From IMG/VR virus record IMGVR_UViG_3300033144_006696, positions 1 to 64,000 of that record: 64,000 nt of DNA; one strand, 5' to 3'. This stretch comes from a virus. The translations under genes and the position numbers were made by a program. The notes under the pieces are model-generated. The model saw only the letters and a program-made list of their open reading frames with translations, made no database searches and was not told the origin of the DNA. The first letter of the stretch is position 1. Every line of letters starts with the position of its first letter. Shown piece by piece: positions 8,038 through 31,609 of this stretch.

Positions 8038-8748
8038 TTATTCTTCTTTTATTTTTCTGCGCTTCTTTGGTCTTGTATATGTTATATGTTTCCAAGTTTT
8101 TTTATTCCATATATTTCCCACTGTACCACCACTAACATTAAATAATCTACCAACTTCAGACTGTGTTAGTTTTTCTTTTAAACTTAATATTTTTTTAACT
8201 TCATATTCTGTAAGTTTTGCCTTTGTATTTTTTATCCCTCTTGCTGATCTTCCTTTATTTTTCATATCTTGAAAATTATCTATGTGAGTTCCAAGAAATA
8301 AATGATCTGGATTTATGCATTTAGGATTATCACATGTATGACATACCTGTTTATCTTTTGGATCAATTCCTTTTAGATACTTGAATACGTATCTTGAAGC
8401 TAATGGTGATTCTTTGCTACGTGTACCACTTATTCTTGCATATCCTTTTATAAGTGATTTTGTCCAATTCCAGCAATTTGTTTTTGGGTCAATTTCAATT
8501 CTTGAAATTACAAAATCTTTATGTGATTGTTTATTTTTATTTTTTTTACCATTTTTTGATCTTGCTTCCAGAGCAAGACAGCCACAAGATTGTGTTTTTC
8601 CTACCCCACGAACTATTGCTGTTTTTCCACAATCACATTTACATTCCCAAAAAGTACATTGATTTTTTATATATGCTAATTTTATAAATGTTAATCTTCC
8701 ACGTTTTATTCCTGTTAGTTCTAACCTTTTACTCATGATCATCCCCAC
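8038..8748 (-). CDS. HNH homing endonuclease (N-terminal CxCxCG module, HNH, C-terminal HTH)
   Basis: WECKCDCG; CWNWT; VCHTCDNPKCINPDHLFLGTHIDN; AKLTEYEVKKI. Confidence 0.85.
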   Translation of the reverse strand: MGMIMSKRLELTGIKRGRLTFIKLAYIKNQCTFWECKCDCGKTAIVRGVGKTQSCGCLALEARSKNGKKNKNKQSHKDFVISRIEIDPKTNCWNWTKSLIKGYARISGTRSKESPLASRYVFKYLKGIDPKDKQVCHTCDNPKCINPDHLFLGTHIDNFQDMKNKGRSARGIKNTKAKLTEYEVKKILSLKEKLTQSEVGRLFNVSGGTVGNIWNKKTWKHITYTRPKKRRKIKEE

Positions 8749-11132
8749 TCATCTTTATAAATTTTATTACGTGAATAACCAGAGTATTTTAGAATACGCA
8801 CATTTTCATCTCGAAAATCAATGACTCTCGGTGTTTTATTTTTGTCTGGACGTAAAATTCTGCCAATGCTCTGTATTACCCTACCCTTCCACTTTACAGG
8901 AGTAGTTAAACACAAACAAGACAAACTGTCAAGTGAGAACCCTTCCCCGATTAATGAGAGTGTTGACAATAGAACCCTACATTTATTATTTTTCATATCT
9001 TTAATAATTTGTTTTCTTTTTTTGGATGCTGTTTTTCCAGAAACAACTAAATGATTAATTTTTATACTGTTTAACAATTTTGATAATGTATTTAAATGGT
9101 TCACCCTATCAGAAACAACTAAAATATTTCCATTATTATTTTTTATATCTGCATGGATTGTACGAACTATTAATTCATTCCTTTTTGGATCTTCCGTCAA
9201 TTTCTTAATGATAGTTGCGTATGGCATTTGATCCTCATCAATGAAACTTCTTGCTGCCCTAAAATTTGTTTTCACAAGAATAATTTGAGGTTTTAACACT
9301 TGTCCTTTTTCAAACAATAACTTCTTATCTACAGTATGGAGTTTGGGTCCCATATGCACATAGATTGCCCCTCCAAGACCATCTTTTCTGTAAGGTGTTG
9401 CAGATAATCCCATATAATGTTTTGCAGGGAATTGAATCAACGTATCGGACCATGTGTCGCTGGTTACACGATGACAGTTATGAACCAAAATGCCATTTGC
9501 AAAGTAGTTATTGTTGTCCTCAACTTCTATATTATAGACATAACCATCTGGACACACTTTTCCAAATTCTGATCCACTTCTGCGTTTGTGAACCGTAACA
9601 CTTTCCACCCTTTCCATTTTAAGAGAGATTCTTTCTTTCTGTCTAATTTCTTTCTTTGAATTGAATTGTGACTCTTTCCATCTATTTCTATTGCAATCTT
9701 CAATTTTCGATTTCCTAAATCCACTTTGTATACTTGTGGTACTTTCTTTTTCCGACACCACGCATGTTTGTTTCCATTGACATGATCTGCTGTTTTTACA
9801 GGTATTTCCATTTCCCATCCAAGTGCAATTGCCATTTTTTCTTGTTGGGGAGTCGGTCCAGTTCCGTTCCCACCTCTTGCTCCAAGCCATACATTGAATG
9901 TTCCATTTATTCTCCTCTTGGATTTCATTTTTTCTATGTTTAATGATGAGTGCATTGGGTTCGTTTCTGTCATCCGTTTGCTGTTGGCTCTCCTGGCCTG
10001 TTTTGATTTTGAATATAGGATTGTAGCTTTCATTCCACACTCCGGTGTGCAATATACATTTTTGTTTTGATTTGCTCTTTTTCTCTGATAAGGTGTTTTG
10101 CACTCTATAATTTTTTTGCAACTTGGACAAACGGTCATGATCTTTTTCATTTTGTTCTCCTTTTAAAATAGTATACTCTGTGGCTAACACAGAGTTATCA
10201 TTTAATTCGGAGGCTGTCAAGTACTCATTTCCATCAAAGAATGTGTGATTTGTTGTGCATACATTCTTTTTGCCATTTTTTAATTTCACAGTACATAGTG
10301 TATCAGGTTTATGTTTAAATACATTGAGAACTTTTTTCAATTCTATTAGATTTGTTTCATGGTTAAAACTATTTACATAATCACCAATCTTTATTGTTTC
10401 AATTGGCTTATCTCCAATTAATGTGCCTGCAATAAAACATTCGTCGCAAATTATATGGCCAAATTTACGTTCAAGTTCAGGCATTTTATTTTTTACCGTA
10501 TTGATTATTCCCACAGAGACATCTTTGATATTAAATTTCCCATCACCGATTATTCCACAGTCATAATCAAGAAACTTCTTGATTGATTCTTGCCATTGAT
10601 ACAGTAATTCTTTTGTATGAATTATTATTAATGTTGGTTGTTTTCTTTTTGCAATTACAGCGATAGCTATTATTGTTTTGCCTGAACCTGTATTTGCTTT
10701 AAGAACACCTATTGGATATCTCCGAATAATATCATTTACTGCAATTTCTTGGTAATCCCTTAACTTACCTTGAAACTTCAGATTTATTCCAGGTAGAGTC
10801 AAGGTTCTATCATCAATCTTAACTGGATAACCATTGTTTTTGAGCCATTTTTTCATGACCCAAATATAACCTCTTGGTGACCATATAATTTTACCATCGC
10901 GTGATACGGCAAAATATCTTATTTTTTCTGGTATGTCTGATGACACATAAGACCCAAATCTTATTGCATCATCGTAAGCTTTATTTTTGTATGTTAAATC
11001 TGAAAATAATTTCCTCATCGCCTCTTCATCTAAACCATAGTAGCGGCAGCCTTTGCCGATTTGTATGGTAACTGTATTTTTACCATTCTCCATCATAATA
11101 ATTACCACTATCTTCATTTGATTCATTATCAA
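8739..11132 (-). CDS. SF2 (DExH) helicase containing an intein
   Basis: NTGSGKT Walker A, DE|CH motif II split by intein, GLSATP motif III, QSIGRILR motif VI. Confidence 0.9.
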   Translation of the reverse strand: MIMNQMKIVVIIMMENGKNTVTIQIGKGCRYYGLDEEAMRKLFSDLTYKNKAYDDAIRFGSYVSSDIPEKIRYFAVSRDGKIIWSPRGYIWVMKKWLKNNGYPVKIDDRTLTLPGINLKFQGKLRDYQEIAVNDIIRRYPIGVLKANTGSGKTIIAIAVIAKRKQPTLIIIHTKELLYQWQESIKKFLDYDCGIIGDGKFNIKDVSVGIINTVKNKMPELERKFGHIICDECFIAGTLIGDKPIETIKIGDYVNSFNHETNLIELKKVLNVFKHKPDTLCTVKLKNGKKNVCTTNHTFFDGNEYLTASELNDNSVLATEYTILKGEQNEKDHDRLSKLQKNYRVQNTLSEKKSKSKQKCILHTGVWNESYNPIFKIKTGQESQQQTDDRNEPNALIIKHRKNEIQEENKWNIQCMAWSKRWERNWTDSPTRKNGNCTWMGNGNTCKNSRSCQWKQTCVVSEKESTTSIQSGFRKSKIEDCNRNRWKESQFNSKKEIRQKERISLKMERVESVTVHKRRSGSEFGKVCPDGYVYNIEVEDNNNYFANGILVHNCHRVTSDTWSDTLIQFPAKHYMGLSATPYRKDGLGGAIYVHMGPKLHTVDKKLLFEKGQVLKPQIILVKTNFRAARSFIDEDQMPYATIIKKLTEDPKRNELIVRTIHADIKNNNGNILVVSDRVNHLNTLSKLLNSIKINHLVVSGKTASKKRKQIIKDMKNNKCRVLLSTLSLIGEGFSLDSLSCLCLTTPVKWKGRVIQSIGRILRPDKNKTPRVIDFRDENVRILKYSGYSRNKIYKDEWG
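9477..10439 (-). mobile_element. Intein (321 aa) in helicase motif II with no in-frame nuclease domain
   Basis: Starts CFIAGTLI, block B CTTNHTFF, block F VYNIEVEDNNNYFA, ends LVHN followed by extein Cys. Confidence 0.9.
9527..10150 (-). CDS. Vsr/DUF559-like PD-(D/E)xK endonuclease nested in the +1 frame of the helicase intein
   Basis: CPSC..CTPEC Zn motif; YKVDLG...IAIEIDGKSH...DRKKESLLKWKGWKVLRFTN; own SD AAAGGAG 6 nt before ATG. Confidence 0.85.
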   Translation of the reverse strand: MKKIMTVCPSCKKIIECKTPYQRKRANQNKNVYCTPECGMKATILYSKSKQARRANSKRMTETNPMHSSLNIEKMKSKRRINGTFNVWLGARGGNGTGPTPQQEKMAIALGWEMEIPVKTADHVNGNKHAWCRKKKVPQVYKVDLGNRKLKIAIEIDGKSHNSIQRKKLDRKKESLLKWKGWKVLRFTNAEVDQNLEKCVQMVMSII

Positions 11133-26634: not shown

Positions 26635-27294
26635 ATGTTTAAAAGAAAACTTAAAAGAAAAAAATTAATTAAATCAGATAAAAAATTATCAAAAAAAGTT
26701 GCTAAAATAAGAAAAATTAAAAAACCAGATAAACCATTGAAAAAAAAACTTAAAACATATTATAAAAGACAGCAATGCGCTTTTATTCGTAAAAATGGAC
26801 AACAATGCAAAAAAATTGCAGTAGGTAAAAGTACATTATGTGAAATACATGGTGGAGATGTAGTGATAAAAGAAAATCTTTATAAAGGAACTGAAGAAAT
26901 TACTCATCCTAATCACATGGTAAAATTTAATCCTGCTATTCATCCAATTGCATATATTGAAATGGCTAAAGAAGGTTTTTCAGAAGTAGAGATTGCTGCT
27001 GAATTTAATGTTTCTTGTGAAGCATTAAATGGATGGGCAGAAAGATTTGAAAGTTTTTATACTGCTAAAGAAGTTGGTAAAGCAATGCATGAGGCATGGT
27101 GGTTACGTGAAGGTAAAAATAATTTAAATGAAAGATCTTTCAATACACCATTATTTAAATATATGACTATGAATAAATTAGGATATTCTGATAAAATTGA
27201 GCAGAAATCTTTAAATATGAATTTACATGGAGTTTTAATGGTTCCTGATACTGTTTCTGAAGAAGATTGGGAAAAGGATTTAATTGATGTCTAA
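26635..27294 (+). CDS. terS: Terminase small subunit (P22 gp3-like, HTH)
   Basis: GFSEVEIAAEFNVSCEALNGW...F......GK...EAWW...G...FNT.LFKY..MNKLGYSDK; position upstream of TerL. Confidence 0.7.
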   Translation: MFKRKLKRKKLIKSDKKLSKKVAKIRKIKKPDKPLKKKLKTYYKRQQCAFIRKNGQQCKKIAVGKSTLCEIHGGDVVIKENLYKGTEEITHPNHMVKFNPAIHPIAYIEMAKEGFSEVEIAAEFNVSCEALNGWAERFESFYTAKEVGKAMHEAWWLREGKNNLNERSFNTPLFKYMTMNKLGYSDKIEQKSLNMNLHGVLMVPDTVSEEDWEKDLIDV

Positions 27295-27970
27295 ATTAAA
27301 GAAAATAAAAAAAGAAAAAAGAAAAAAGAAAATACCTTCTCCTTTTACAAAGGAATTTTATGCCTCTATGTCACCTGAAGTAAAAAAGGCATATTTTGAT
27401 AAAAGAACAAAAAATAGAAAAAAAAATGGAGCTAAAACTCCTTCAAAGGGATTAAAGAAATTTTATGCCTCTATGTCTCCAGCAAAAAAGAAAAAGTTTT
27501 TTGATAAAATAATGAAAAATAGAAAAAAAAATGGAGCTAAAACTTCTTCAAAGGGATTGAAGGAATTTTATGCCTCTATGTCACCTGAAGTAAAAAAGGC
27601 ATATTTTGATAAAAGAACAAAAGCATCAGCAGAAACTAAAAAAAGGATTGGATATAAACCAGATCTAAAAGGATTAATTGCATATAGAAATAATATGACT
27701 TTAGCAGAAAAGAAGAAATTTTATAGCAAAAGAGCAAAAACTTTAAGAAAAACTAATGCAAAAAGAACACCGGAATCGAAAAAAGCACAAACTTCTAATG
27801 CAGTTAAAGCCAGAAAAGCAATTATTGCTACACCAGAAGGTAGAGCAAGATTAGCAGCAATAACCACTAAGAGTATATTGAAATCACAAAACTCTATAGT
27901 AATAAGAGATCTTCCAAGAATTAATGATTATGCAGGAAATATTACTTTTTCGGAGTATGAATCCTTATGA
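27284..27970 (+). CDS. Basic repeat protein (NUMOD-like helical repeats, no nuclease motif seen)
   Basis: 35-aa repeats KEFYASMSPEVKKAYFDKRTK.RKKNGAKT.SKGL. Confidence 0.6.
   Translation: MMSKLKKIKKEKRKKKIPSPFTKEFYASMSPEVKKAYFDKRTKNRKKNGAKTPSKGLKKFYASMSPAKKKKFFDKIMKNRKKNGAKTSSKGLKEFYASMSPEVKKAYFDKRTKASAETKKRIGYKPDLKGLIAYRNNMTLAEKKKFYSKRAKTLRKTNAKRTPESKKAQTSNAVKARKAIIATPEGRARLAAITTKSILKSQNSIVIRDLPRINDYAGNITFSEYESL
27351..27622 (+). repeat. 105-bp tandem repeat, about 2.6 copies
   Basis: 62 bp identical at 27351-27412 and 27561-27622, diverged middle copy at about 27456. Confidence 0.85.
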
Positions 27971-30645
27971 GAAAAAAACCACCAGTAATTTGGAAACCAT
28001 GGCCTGGAGCACAGCAGAGATTTTTGACTTGTCCTGTATGGGAATGCTTACTCCATGGCAACCGGGGCGGCGGGAAGACGGATGTGCTGATAATGGATTA
28101 TTTGCAAAATGTAGGAAAGGGGTTTGGAGCTGACTATAAAGGACTATTGCTTAGAGAGGCTACTACAGAACTCGGGGATGTGATTTCTAAAACAAAGAAA
28201 TGGATTCCAAGAATTTTTCCAATGGCAAAATTCAATAATTCTAAAAAAGTATGGACTTTTCCAGAAGGAGAAACACTATGGTTGAATTATGCAAGAGTAG
28301 ATGTGGATTATGAACAATACCACGGACATGAGTTTTGTTACGATAGTGACACAGAAATTCTTTTACCTGATAAGCAGCAGAAAAAAGCTAAAAATATAAA
28401 AATTGGTGATTTAGTTCAGACTTTACAGGGACCGAAAAAAATCACCAAAATTTTTAAATCAAAAAAGATAGGTGTTAAAGTTTCTGCTTTAGATGAGGAT
28501 TTGAATTTAATAAGTCAGCAACAGCAAGCTTTAACACATTCTGTTTTGACCAACGACGGATGGCAACGGATAGGGTTGTCCTGCTTGTTTCAAGTTTCTG
28601 AGCAATCTGAAGTTGGGAAACATTATTTAAAAGAAGTTTCTCAATTTCTTTTTGGTGTGCATCAAGAAATCCTGGCGGCTTCGCAGTTGAACCTTTGCTT
28701 GGTAGAGTTCCATTCCATTTCTGCAAATATCTCCAAATGGTATTCTTGTTTGTGTCAAATTTTTTCCCAATTTCTACATTTGATAATTTCATACTCTTCA
28801 TTTTCAAAATCTCAGATTTGTGAACTTCAAGAAAGCCTATTGGCTTGCCGCTTTGAAAAAGTTTTGGGAATCTTCGATAAAGAGTGGAAACATGAACACC
28901 AAATATTTCTGCAACTTCTTCAGCACTGTTCTTTTTTAATAGATCTTGCACATCAATTTCAAGCATCTTATTTTCATCAAAGGCTGTCCATTGTATGTCA
29001 TATTTTTGAATTATCTTCTTTACTAAAGATTCAGAAATGTCCAATAAATCAGCAGCAATATTCCTTGAAATACTATTATTCTTTGCAAATCCTTTTACTT
29101 TCTGAATTAATTCGGGATTATGATGCATTGAATGGTACTTACCAAGATGTTCAGCATGATCTTTACAGAGTATTAGATTATCAGGATGATTGTTTGAAGG
29201 ATTCTTATCATCATGGTGCGGAATTTCACCAGGAAGTAGAAAACGATTTAATTTCTGCTCCATCACAAATCTGTGTTCAAAAATACAACCTCCTTTCTGT
29301 GCATAAGGATGATTTGGGCACTTTAACAGAATGTAGCCCTTCTTATCTGGAGAAAGTCTCTTATAGACAACCTTACTCTTATGAATTTTTTCAAACAACT
29401 GCTGCATTGAATCCTGTTTCTTTTTCCGTTTCCTCATTAGAGACTCCTATTGATATGGTTGATTTTGAAGTAGAAGATGCTCACCACTATTTAACATCAA
29501 TGAACAGTATCATAGATAATGAAAAGAGTCAAGATATATTTACTGTAAGTTCCAATTGCTATATTGGTTGGGAAGAAATAAGTAACCATGCTTTACCAAA
29601 CGTCTATTTAAAATTGATGTCTTGTAATCGTTCTTCAAATCCCAAAATACCATTGAAATATAGAGCAACATGTAATCCTAGCGGCCCAGGACATCAATGG
29701 TTAAAACGAAGGTTCATTGATGCAGGACCTCCAGGGAAAATTCAAAGAGAAAAATTAGAATTTGAATATCCTGATAAAAATGGAGAAATGACAAAAACTG
29801 AATTGACAGTAGCAAGAACTCATGTTCAAAGTTATCAATCAGAGAATAAATCATTAGCTGAAGCAGATCCTTTATACATGGCCAAAATCTTTTCACTTAC
29901 CCAAGATAATGAGATGTTAAGAAAGGCATGGATTGATGGAAGTTGGGATTTATTGATTGGTGGATTTTTCACTGATGTATGGGACCCTAAAATACACGTT
30001 CTTCCAAATTTTAAACCACCAAAATCTTGGAAACTTTTTAGGAGTTTTGATTGGGGTTCTTCTAAGCCATGGGCAGTCACTTACGGAGCAGAATGTAATG
30101 GTGAACAACCAATTCCAATTGATGTTGATTTGCCATATTTTCCAAAAGGATCAGTTGTTATTTTAAATGAAATTTATGGGTGGACAGGAATTCCAAATGA
30201 GGGTGATCAAGCAATATCTTCTGAGATTGCTGAAAGGGTTTTAGCTGTTGACAATGTTTTATTTGGTGAGTATGCTATGAAAGTTATACCTGGACCTGCT
30301 GATTCTGCAATTTGGGCTGTTATTGATGGGACTTCAATTGGTGCTGCATTGACAAATTCTGGATGTAATTGGACAAGAGCGCATAAAGGACCAGGATCAA
30401 GAGTAGCTGGATGGTCAATTATTAGACAAATGTTAGGAGCAGCAAAAAGGAAAGATCTTGAACGACCACATTTATATTTCTTTCAGCAAGCAGAACACCA
30501 TATTAGAACTTTGCCATTACAACAAAGAGACAAGAAAAAACCTGAAGATCTTCAAACCGATGGGGAAGATCACATTTGTGACAGTTTACGGTATCTTTTG
30601 TCACGTAAAATGACAACAATGAAAAGACGAAAGGTAGGTATTTGA
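27967..30645 (+). CDS. terL: Terminase large subunit containing an intein
   Basis: GNRGGGKT Walker A, HEF|CYIGWEE Walker B split by intein, ATCNP, FDWG, DH.CDSLRY nuclease motifs. Confidence 0.95.
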   Translation: MRKKPPVIWKPWPGAQQRFLTCPVWECLLHGNRGGGKTDVLIMDYLQNVGKGFGADYKGLLLREATTELGDVISKTKKWIPRIFPMAKFNNSKKVWTFPEGETLWLNYARVDVDYEQYHGHEFCYDSDTEILLPDKQQKKAKNIKIGDLVQTLQGPKKITKIFKSKKIGVKVSALDEDLNLISQQQQALTHSVLTNDGWQRIGLSCLFQVSEQSEVGKHYLKEVSQFLFGVHQEILAASQLNLCLVEFHSISANISKWYSCLCQIFSQFLHLIISYSSFSKSQICELQESLLACRFEKVLGIFDKEWKHEHQIFLQLLQHCSFLIDLAHQFQASYFHQRLSIVCHIFELSSLLKIQKCPINQQQYSLKYYYSLQILLLSELIRDYDALNGTYQDVQHDLYRVLDYQDDCLKDSYHHGAEFHQEVENDLISAPSQICVQKYNLLSVHKDDLGTLTECSPSYLEKVSYRQPYSYEFFQTTAALNPVSFSVSSLETPIDMVDFEVEDAHHYLTSMNSIIDNEKSQDIFTVSSNCYIGWEEISNHALPNVYLKLMSCNRSSNPKIPLKYRATCNPSGPGHQWLKRRFIDAGPPGKIQREKLEFEYPDKNGEMTKTELTVARTHVQSYQSENKSLAEADPLYMAKIFSLTQDNEMLRKAWIDGSWDLLIGGFFTDVWDPKIHVLPNFKPPKSWKLFRSFDWGSSKPWAVTYGAECNGEQPIPIDVDLPYFPKGSVVILNEIYGWTGIPNEGDQAISSEIAERVLAVDNVLFGEYAMKVIPGPADSAIWAVIDGTSIGAALTNSGCNWTRAHKGPGSRVAGWSIIRQMLGAAKRKDLERPHLYFFQQAEHHIRTLPLQQRDKKKPEDLQTDGEDHICDSLRYLLSRKMTTMKRRKVGI
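28475..29437 (-). CDS. HNH endonuclease with multiple HTH domains, antisense inside the TerL intein
   Basis: GYILLKCPNHPYA..GG.IFEHRFVME.KL.R...E.PHHDDKNPSNNHPDNL; four HTH-like repeats (e.g. AEEVAEIFGVHVSTLYRR); AGGAG SD 7 nt before ATG. Confidence 0.9.
   Translation of the reverse strand: MRKRKKKQDSMQQLFEKIHKSKVVYKRLSPDKKGYILLKCPNHPYAQKGGCIFEHRFVMEQKLNRFLLPGEIPHHDDKNPSNNHPDNLILCKDHAEHLGKYHSMHHNPELIQKVKGFAKNNSISRNIAADLLDISESLVKKIIQKYDIQWTAFDENKMLEIDVQDLLKKNSAEEVAEIFGVHVSTLYRRFPKLFQSGKPIGFLEVHKSEILKMKSMKLSNVEIGKKFDTNKNTIWRYLQKWNGTLPSKGSTAKPPGFLDAHQKEIEKLLLNNVSQLQIAQKLETSRTTLSVAIRRWSKQNVLKLAVADLLNSNPHLKQKL
29504..29532 (-). promoter_or_regulatory. Candidate antisense sigma70 promoter for the nested HNH gene
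   Basis: TTGACT-17-TACTGT with TGn extension, inside an atypical insertion between intein blocks F and G. Confidence 0.55.
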
Positions 30646-30722
30646 TTCTTTCTGTTATTTAATACTTGATTCGTTTCATTATTAAATATAATATGCTTTA
30701 TAATCCTAAAGGAGGATAAGGC

Positions 30723-31298
30723 ATGAAAAGAGTTAAAATTATTTCAGATACAATTCAAGAGTTTTGGGAGAGATATTATTTTTGTGGTAATTATTTTCAA
30801 AAGAATGGTAAAAGATTGCATAGAGAAGTTTGGAAATTCTATAAAGGAGAAATTCCCAAAGGTTTTATAGTACATCACATAAAAGAGGATAAATCTAAAA
30901 ATCAAATTGAAGATTTTGAGCTTATGATAAGAGCAAAACATGTATTACATCACATTAAAAAAAGAAAACCCATTCCAATTACTAAACAATGTAGGGAAGC
31001 AGCAAACAAATGGCATGGTAGTGAAGATGGTAGAAAATGGCATAATAAACATTATGAAAATACTAAAAAAAATTTACAAAAAAAGATAGAAAGGGAATGT
31101 TCTTGGTGTGGTGAAATTTTTGAAAGCAAAAGAAAAAATGTAGATGTATTTTGTTCTGGAAAATGTAGAACAGCCAGCAGGAAGGCTTCTGGAATTGATG
31201 ATATTGAAAAAATATGTGAAGTATGTTCTAAATTTTATATGGCAAATAAATATTCAAAGGTGAAAACTTGTTCAAAGATTTGTAAACGTAAACTTTAA
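30723..31298 (+). CDS. HNH endonuclease with C-terminal zinc ribbons
   Basis: RLHREVW...IPKGFIVHHIKEDKSKNQIEDFEL...H..HH; CSWC..FCSGKC; CEVC..CSKIC. Confidence 0.8.
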   Translation: MKRVKIISDTIQEFWERYYFCGNYFQKNGKRLHREVWKFYKGEIPKGFIVHHIKEDKSKNQIEDFELMIRAKHVLHHIKKRKPIPITKQCREAANKWHGSEDGRKWHNKHYENTKKNLQKKIERECSWCGEIFESKRKNVDVFCSGKCRTASRKASGIDDIEKICEVCSKFYMANKYSKVKTCSKICKRKL

Positions 31299-31312
31299 AA
31301 AGGAAATAAACA

Positions 31313-31609
31313 ATGGCGAAAGTAAGTTTAATGAATGCACAAGAAAAACAATGGCAGAGAGAATGGGATGCACGTACATTAGCAGATGCTGAAGAGATAA
31401 GGGCAAAACCTGCTCGATTAAAAGGTGCACAACAGGCAGCAAAAACAATGGCAAAAGATGCTCAAGTAAAAGCTGCATCATTGAGTAAGGTTGCCAAAAC
31501 AACTGCACCCAAAGCAAAACCAAGAGCTAAAGTTGCTCCTAGAACTGCTCCAAAGAAGAGCACAGCGACTGTGAATAGTAATACAAAAACTCCTTATAAA
31601 AGGAAATAA
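31313..31609 (+). CDS. Small basic hypothetical protein
   Basis: EKQWQREWDARTLADAEEI plus Ala/Lys-rich tail. Confidence 0.65.
   Translation: MAKVSLMNAQEKQWQREWDARTLADAEEIRAKPARLKGAQQAAKTMAKDAQVKAASLSKVAKTTAPKAKPRAKVAPRTAPKKSTATVNSNTKTPYKRK

Follow-up and report, generated by a model that had tools for sequence, protein, structure and literature searches.

Organization of the terL locus

The DNA analysed here, referred to below as the window, is the 64,000-nt stretch at positions 1 to 64,000 of the IMG/VR virus record IMGVR_UViG_3300033144_006696, which is 123,866 bp in full and complete by CheckV; the G+C content of the window is 32%. Its gene for the terminase large subunit (TerL) contains an in-frame insert of 407 codons that we interpret as an intein, and the opposite strand of this insert carries a complete open reading frame (ORF) for a predicted HNH homing endonuclease followed by an array of helix-turn-helix (HTH) modules. 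The features of the locus are as follows (SD, Shine-Dalgarno sequence; empty alleles are terL genes without the insert).

27967..30645, plus strand: TerL precursor ORF, 892 aa including the intein
27967..28335, plus strand: N-extein, 123 aa, with the Walker A motif (PHROG matches, contiguity in empty alleles)
28336..29556, plus strand: predicted intein, 407 aa (Cys1 ... Ser-Ser-Asn407), whose ends are exactly those of the gap against empty alleles
28336..28605, plus strand: predicted Hint N-terminal lobe, aa 1-90, with the block B His68 codon at 28537-28539
28478..28605, both strands: double-constraint zone, the last HTH and tail (HNH aa 278-320) opposite the predicted Hint strands around block B (intein aa 48-90); the last 44 HNH codons in all face intein residues 47-90
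28606..29433, plus strand: read-through segment, aa 91-366, sense translation of the complement of the HNH gene
29434..29556, plus strand: predicted Hint C-terminal lobe, aa 367-407, consisting of block F, an F-G insertion (29494-29535) and block G to Asn407
29557..29559, plus strand: +1 Cys codon, predicted splice nucleophile
29557..30645, plus strand: C-extein, 362 aa and stop, beginning with a presumed Walker B-like motif
28475..29437, minus strand: predicted HNH homing endonuclease gene, 320 aa and stop
29126..29350, minus strand: HNH nuclease core, aa 30-104 (PHROG HNH families match aa 30-101)
28538..29080, minus strand: HTH array, aa 120-300 (Pfam HTH_23, HTH_28, HTH_38, HTH_7)
29448-29444, minus strand: putative SD AGGAG, 6 nt 5' of the HNH ATG, overlapping the sense codons just before block F
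29504..29532, minus strand: promoter-like TTGACT-17 nt-TACTGT in the F-G insertion (TTGACT 29532-29527, TACTGT 29509-29504)

The TerL exteins (residues 1-123 and 531-892 of the precursor) match the PHROG terminase large subunit families phrog_979 (3.7e-14) and phrog_2 (1.5e-17), and the closest cultured relatives are the TerL proteins of Pseudomonas and Stenotrophomonas siphophages at approximately 40% identity. This TerL family is not recognised by any Pfam model, and PHROGs were therefore required for its identification; a sequence search of the PDB with an empty-site TerL (L028) matched no solved relative. The insertion site appears to lie just 5' of Walker B, as read from the WIGWEE-type motif that follows the insert.

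The insert as a predicted intein

In all 11 intein-less alleles (L028, L030, L034, L037, L038, L040 and L041 among them) the N- and C-exteins are contiguous exactly at the insert boundaries. The +1 residue in these alleles is Pro (ten alleles) or Val (one), and it is Cys or Ser in every readable intein-bearing allele. Cys/Ser at +1 with the intein and Pro/Val at the empty site is a pattern that a protein-splicing element, unlike an RNA intron, would demand. Residue 1 of the insert is Cys or Ser in 16 of 16 sequences (Cys in the window) and the last residue is Asn in 15 of them and Gln in one. His68 is invariant in the 16 sequences, as are Trp76 and Gly80 in the alignment, and in the C lobe Val375, Asp376, Phe377, Glu378 and Val379 are invariant or nearly so. 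In the window and all relatives the host gene is one open frame, not two ORFs as in split inteins.

An AlphaFold2 model of the intein was made from the 16-sequence alignment. Its confidence (pLDDT, for predicted local distance difference test) is 70-90 over residues 1-110 and 81-84 over residues 361-380, and falls below 50 over residues 228-359. The N lobe (aa 1-90) is beta-rich in the model, with pLDDT 70-88, and the two ends of the insert jointly build a Hint fold, which VIA-align superimposed on the gp41-1 intein (6riz) with Z 14.6 and a root-mean-square deviation (rmsd) of 1.9 Å over 111 of 127 residues; the top 50 matches were inteins or Hint domains without exception. Foldseek agrees with this assignment (2.1e-4), and a PDB sequence search with the intein gave a weak gp41-1 match (E 0.3). 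Identification of the insert as an intein in TerL is thus supported at the level of a predicted structure. An earlier note on this DNA, made from the letters alone, had proposed a 407-aa intein with Cys1, a Ser-Asn end and Cys at +1; all of these are present where it placed them and agree with the Hint fold and the junction residues, and reading of the insert end confirmed its penultimate residue as Ser.

Between the two lobes lies the part that the note had described as some 300 aa of nonsense-like sequence. It corresponds to the read-through segment, for which a PHROG family search (aa 91-366) returned no match and whose sense-frame substitution ratio is given below. AlphaFold2 drew long helices in a part of this segment (intein aa 91-200, 28606-28935), with pLDDT up to 90; they may reflect only the conservation imposed by the antisense gene. 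A further insertion between blocks F and G is 10-25 residues long and differs in length among relatives.

The antisense HNH gene

The antisense 320-aa ORF with its AGGAG was recovered as the note had described it, an HNH and multi-HTH protein at 28475-29437 on the minus strand. It matches PHROG HNH endonuclease families (3.8e-16) and Pfam HTH_23 (2.3e-13) plus further HTH families. Pfam HNH_3 scored 21.2 bits on the window ORF, under its 24.8-bit cut-off, and was recorded for relatives. Eight residues of the nuclease core (His55, Arg56, Glu60, His74, His75, Asn87, His97 and His102) are invariant in the family alignment, the catalytic His, Asn and His included. The protein model (pLDDT 79) gave a modest match of residues 11-102 to I-HmuI (1u3e; Z 6.3, rmsd 3.4 Å, 80 residues, 21% identity), and its HTH part resembled the DNA-binding domains of resolvase, Tc3 and GcrA (Z 6-7). 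A PDB sequence search with the HNH profile found HTH proteins only. In L025 and P0013, approximately 12 residues are deleted just before the HNH core (window residues ~40-52).

The gene appears to have expression signals of its own, i.e., the SD and the promoter-like site. An SD-like purine run is found at the matching place 5' of the HNH gene in 5 of 5 loci examined, and the same five loci carry TTGAYT, a 17-nt spacer and a hexamer starting with TA, 95-110 nt 5' of the HNH ATG. The promoter-like site is proposed because its position is kept among relatives; within the F-G insertion, Ser-Gln alone is conserved in the sense frame, and its codons are complementary to the first hexamer.

The sense frame is kept open across the nested gene

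The TerL frame contains no stop codon over the 963 nt of the HNH ORF, and the other two plus-strand frames contain 25 and 18. Shuffling of the HNH codons predicts 25.5 sense stops and synonymous resampling with window codon usage predicts 16.1, and zero was reached in 0 of 20,000 trials in either test. The statement of the earlier note that the sense frame is stop-free over all 963 nt therefore holds, against an expectation of 16-25 stops.

The rule behind this is simple. In this phase a sense stop arises where an HNH codon ending in TT, CT or TC precedes a codon starting with A. The window HNH gene has 71 such risky codons (NTT, NCT, NTC), none of which is followed by an A-starting codon, although such codons make up 36% of its total. 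In the relatives and the window together there are 56-71 risky codons per locus, and again none precedes A. Phe immediately before Ile, Met, Thr, Asn or Lys has to be avoided as a protein pairing because synonymous choice cannot rescue it, and in nine HNH proteins these pairings were seen 0 times versus 30 expected.

Relatives with an intact HNH gene (four loci) likewise have 0 sense stops versus 18-21 expected. In L044, a locus with an HNH protein only ~30% identical to that of the window, there are 0 versus 12.7 expected; being stop-free at such a distance, it indicates that openness has been maintained over deep divergence and not only filtered at insertion. The open sense frame is kept by selection.

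Selection on the two strands

The ratio of nonsynonymous to synonymous substitution (dN/dS) was estimated by the Nei-Gojobori method on an alignment made in the HNH frame. The HNH frame gives 0.17-0.43 and the sense frame 1.1-1.4, so that the two-strand comparison suggested in the earlier note comes out low on the nuclease side and raised on the intein side. In the middle of the insert, most change falls on sense position 2 (0.47), corresponding to the wobble base of the HNH codons, and least on sense position 3 (0.31). In this middle part, it is the HNH frame on which selection acts. In the exteins and splice lobes (e.g., intein aa 1-46), position 3 is the most variable, which is the normal sense pattern.

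A third pattern is found in the zone where the end of the HNH gene runs opposite block B (28478..28605). Change by codon position is 0.26, 0.23 and 0.29, all low, and dN and dS are low in both frames (the pair L032-L036 was left out of this estimate, as the sense frame chosen there may be wrong). Here the same bases encode invariant residues of both proteins, in the recognition helix of the last HTH and in the strands that follow block B of the intein. The prediction of double constraint where the HNH C-terminus meets block B (His at 28537) is thus borne out by low change at every codon position of both frames.

Relatives, distribution and mobility

The same insert, at the same site and with the antisense HNH gene, is present in IMG/VR in L025, L026/L027, L031, L032 and L036, with HNH identities to the window of 42-60% and an open sense frame in all. 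In a search of 5.8 billion proteins, the window-type intein turned up in 11 TerLs, and the HNH ORF had been called in four instances. A distant relative is L044 (59% G+C), in which the HNH protein, the intein N-terminus and the C-extein are each ~30% identical to the window and the terL site, the antisense arrangement and the relative phase are the same.

The 1362-aa TerL of L044 (1462-5550, minus strand) contains four inteins, one in the P-loop, one before Walker B (with the antisense HNH gene) and two later mini-inteins, and the TerLs of P0004 and P0006 contain three each. The TerL family of the window is an intein hot spot, a single gene holding as many as four.

Mapped onto a tree of 25 extein sequences, the presence of the intein takes a minimum of 8 changes, of which well-supported branches force 6; this number is no lower than that for shuffled labels. 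L031 (with the intein) and L033 (empty at the window site) have flanking DNA 92-100% identical and differ at +1, Cys versus Val. Between the window and L025 the C-exteins are 91% identical, the HNH proteins 58% and the intein N-termini 46%. The HNH gene was found only with the intein and is absent from all empty alleles. Such a distribution is consistent with a unit that, as a whole, has repeatedly been gained, replaced or precisely lost.

Other nuclease and intein arrangements

The earlier note had proposed a search for other inteins with antisense ORFs; these were found in the terL relatives, L044 among them, and in two P-loop inteins. In L002 and L003, a related HNH core lies antisense, in the relative phase of the window, within the P-loop (Walker A) intein of an unrelated TerL:

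L002, 1875-4700, minus strand: host terL gene
L002, 3818-4546, plus strand: HNH ORF
L003, 1344-3827, minus strand: host terL gene
L003, 3008-3706, plus strand: HNH ORF

The L002 intein is recognised by Pfam Intein_splicing (2.1e-16), both host frames have 0 stops versus 11 expected each, and the 3' part of the HNH gene overlaps nearly the whole N-terminal Hint lobe.

Same-strand nesting was also seen. In the window, a helicase gene at 8739-11132 (minus strand; ResIII, Helicase_C) contains an intein (Pfam Intein_splicing, 2.7e-14) with a nested, out-of-frame ORF on the same strand (9527-10150, minus) for a 207-aa DUF559/Vsr-like nuclease (1.6e-12); the host frame has 0 stops versus 14.1 expected. 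In the same genome, outside the window at ~104.8-108.0 kb (L043), a DNA polymerase A intein (Intein_splicing, 36.3 bits) carries an in-frame HNH_3 domain. An antisense HNH (TerL), an out-of-frame DUF559 (helicase) and an in-frame HNH (DNA polymerase) are therefore all found together in the genome of this phage. In L033, a different TerL intein near the C-terminus (1953-2845) holds a nested same-strand, out-of-frame ORF of 195 aa (2205-2792, plus; HNH_3, 3.5e-11), with 0 host-frame stops versus 4.9 expected and zero reached in 5 of 5000 shuffles.

Antisense HNH ORFs also occur at L007:3827-4309 (plus), in a 2760-aa minus-strand frame, and at L011:3734-4288 (plus), in a 1113-aa frame. These hosts are polyvalent phage proteins (SNF2, RadC, MuF, ART; InPase) with no detectable intein. 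Codon shuffling is uninformative for both because the codons are in exact register. They may be antisense counterparts of the hidden HNH insertion of phage ShiLan described below.

Proposed explanation and alternatives

Taken together, we consider it quite probable that the terL insert is a mobile intein in the ATPase domain of TerL whose homing endonuclease does not form a domain of the intein protein but is encoded separately, by a gene on the other strand. The TerL mRNA, its frame being open, would be translated straight through into the 892-aa precursor. The Hint lobes (aa 1-90 and 367-407) would fold together and loop out the 276 residues that are the complement of the HNH gene. By class 1 splicing with Cys1, Cys+1 and cyclisation of Asn407, as the predicted fold and the conserved residues suggest, a 485-aa TerL would be released with Cys at the position that is Pro or Val in empty alleles. 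The 320-aa nuclease, with an HNH core and three or four HTH modules, would be made from its own SD and promoter-like site. In a mixed infection, the nuclease would cut an intein-less terL at the conserved site, and repair of the cut allele would bring in a copy of the intein together with the nuclease gene and the +1 Cys codon, two steps to which the intein distribution points. As TerL is essential, the HNH gene may never create a sense-frame stop, and under this rule NTT, NCT and NTC before A are avoided.

A number of observations weigh against this explanation. Pfam Hint models remain under their cut-offs in the window intein (Vint, 19.6 bits versus 27; Hom_end_hint, 15.5 versus 32.1). The block B Thr is not conserved, Ala or Gly being found there, and the penultimate His of block G is absent, with Ser in the window and Ser, Gln, Ala or Lys across relatives; the penultimate His is dispensable in a minority of active inteins. 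The protein would also have to tolerate a fairly hydrophobic read-through segment of 276 residues. The proposed antisense promoter is missing from the output of a generic scan with a stricter rule, its second hexamer fitting only 3 of 6 consensus bases. The scattered distribution could in part reflect precise losses instead of gains. Finally, the HNH gene of L026/L027 has a single in-frame stop (L027, ~3090) with the TerL frame still open; the stop is either a recent inactivation of the nuclease or a sequencing error.

The last point leads to the alternative that survives best, namely that the intein is real and the antisense HNH protein is not, or no longer, its homing enzyme, being a decaying passenger or a protein that serves the phage in competitor exclusion or as a packaging helper. 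The L026/L027 nonsense codon with an intact sense frame is what a decaying passenger would look like, as the nuclease can decay while the intein must still splice, and the residues missing near the HNH N-terminus in L025 and P0013 point the same way. In some phages, HNH proteins beside terminase genes are packaging helpers, and a free-standing HNH_3 endonuclease gene does lie immediately 3' of the window terL (30723-31298, plus strand; 191 aa, 1.7e-8); the own-genome search for relatives of the nested HNH did not pick it up. This alternative is nevertheless improbable: the nested HNH keeps strictly to intein-bearing alleles, purifying selection on it extends to relatives only 30% identical, it joins an I-HmuI-like core to a long HTH array as site-specific homing enzymes do, and intein and nuclease move or turn over together, discordantly with the exteins.

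Much less probable still is that the insert is not spliced: TerL would then retain it as a loop that it tolerates and in which a nuclease gene is hidden, as has been proposed for the ShiLan insertion. Hidden HNH genes in host ORFs without an intein do exist (PMC11855218), and the ORFs of L007 and L011 have the antisense form of this layout. Such a loop would not account for the predicted Hint fold at Z 14.6, for the conservation of Cys/Ser1, terminal Asn and +1 Cys/Ser versus Pro/Val in empty alleles, or for the normal sense-frame purifying selection on the splice lobes, and 407 extra residues adjoining an ATPase catalytic motif would presumably be hard to tolerate. A third reading, in which the segment leaves the RNA as a group I or II intron carrying an endonuclease gene in antisense and the intein-like ends are coincidental, was dropped and is scarcely credible: HNH genes are frequent in group I introns of phages, and one of them, I-HmuI, encodes the best structural match of the nuclease core, yet an intron needs no open frame and all relatives are stop-free versus 11-25 expected stops, an Rfam scan of 27000-31500 (E up to 1) found no match to a group I or II intron or any other family, and neither the Hint fold nor the +1 Cys/Ser requirement would be accounted for.

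If the mobile intein with its opposite-strand endonuclease is accepted, a further suggestion can be made tentatively, and we regard it as rather unlikely on present evidence: that the pair is an old, integrated two-strand selfish unit and not an accidental or short-lived invasion, and that the HNH lineage is a specialist of antisense residence in inteins. The age of the unit is suggested because the pair persists at the same terL site and codon phase down to ~30% identity (L044), because the splicing domain has a dedicated F-G loop into which the promoter-like site is built, and because the last DNA-binding helix of the HNH protein is co-encoded with block B. Specialisation is suggested because a related core lies antisense, in the same phase, in the unrelated P-loop terminase inteins of L002 and L003. 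Convergent transcription could also couple nuclease and terminase expression; the idea of the earlier note that antisense transcription might modulate terminase expression is speculative.

Implications

Gene callers, which retain the long TerL ORF, discard the antisense gene nested in it; the HNH gene is called in 4 of the ~15 family members found, and such nucleases are therefore largely invisible in databases. With this locus, HNH joins the nuclease families able to live antisense in inteins, and the finding supports the view that inteins gain nucleases when free-standing endonuclease genes invade mini-inteins, in any frame or orientation. The locus is also a clean natural case of dual coding in antisense: the rule that it obeys, a set of forbidden dicodons, can be measured, and over a short zone both proteins are conserved. 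The near-identical alleles with and without the intein are a ready substrate for homing assays, and the nuclease may be a new long-target enzyme.

Comparison with known systems

The expectation of the earlier note that this layout was under-described was not borne out. Antisense LAGLIDADG endonucleases are known from inteins of Synechocystis DnaX and a Chloroflexus SpoVR-like protein (Gorbalenya 1998; Gogarten et al. 2002, as cited in bioRxiv 10.1101/2025.01.02.630785), and actinobacteriophage inteins, including those in terminase, carry antisense LAGLIDADG or VSR-like endonucleases (Gosselin et al. 2025, bioRxiv 10.1101/2025.01.02.630785). Like the window, the published cases have a separate antisense ORF in the endonuclease slot of a contiguous intein and an open host frame, their hosts include phage TerL, and their distribution suggests ongoing transfer. 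They differ from it in nuclease type, being LAGLIDADG or VSR-like, whereas the window has an HNH protein (HNH_3 type) with an HTH array; in source, being from actinophages, whereas the window is from an uncultured, AT-rich, 124-kb virus; and in extent, since in the window the nuclease ORF and its putative signals reach into the splicing domain (the last HTH opposite block B, the SD and promoter-like site opposite blocks F-G). HNH is listed solely as an in-frame endonuclease in the same work (bioRxiv 10.1101/2025.01.02.630785), and no antisense HNH in an intein was found in full-text literature searches.

Four other systems share parts of the arrangement. A cyanobacterial dnaX intein with an out-of-frame LAGLIDADG gene, read as a secondary invasion of a mini-intein (bioRxiv 10.64898/2026.09.14.751524), has overlapping frames, of which that of the nuclease has a low dN/dS and that of the intein a raised one, as in the window; its LAGLIDADG gene is in the +2 frame of the same strand of a bacterial replication gene, whereas the window HNH gene is antisense in a phage packaging gene. 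In fractured genes, split inteins have a free-standing endonuclease gene between their halves (Dassa et al. 2009, PMC2677866). This family includes gp41-1, the best structural match of the window intein, and, like the window, it places a free-standing-type endonuclease gene with its own signals in mid-intein in environmental, phage-like DNA; there the host is in two trans-splicing ORFs with the nuclease between them, whereas the window host frame is continuous and overlapped. The ShiLan insertion is a hidden, out-of-frame HNH gene in a phage methylase (Arsenault et al. 2025, PMC11855218), which resembles the window in having HNH in another frame of the insertion with a stop-free host frame, and differs in lacking a splicing domain and in its same-strand HNH, versus the Hint domain and antisense HNH of the window. 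I-HmuI, an HNH enzyme of a Bacillus phage group I intron, shares with the window protein the order of core and then DNA-binding modules; it is intron-encoded on the sense strand, whereas the window gene is antisense and has a longer C-terminal HTH array. The element of the window is best classed as the HNH version of an intein architecture that is rare but already known; it occupies a different terL site and overlaps the splicing domain more deeply.

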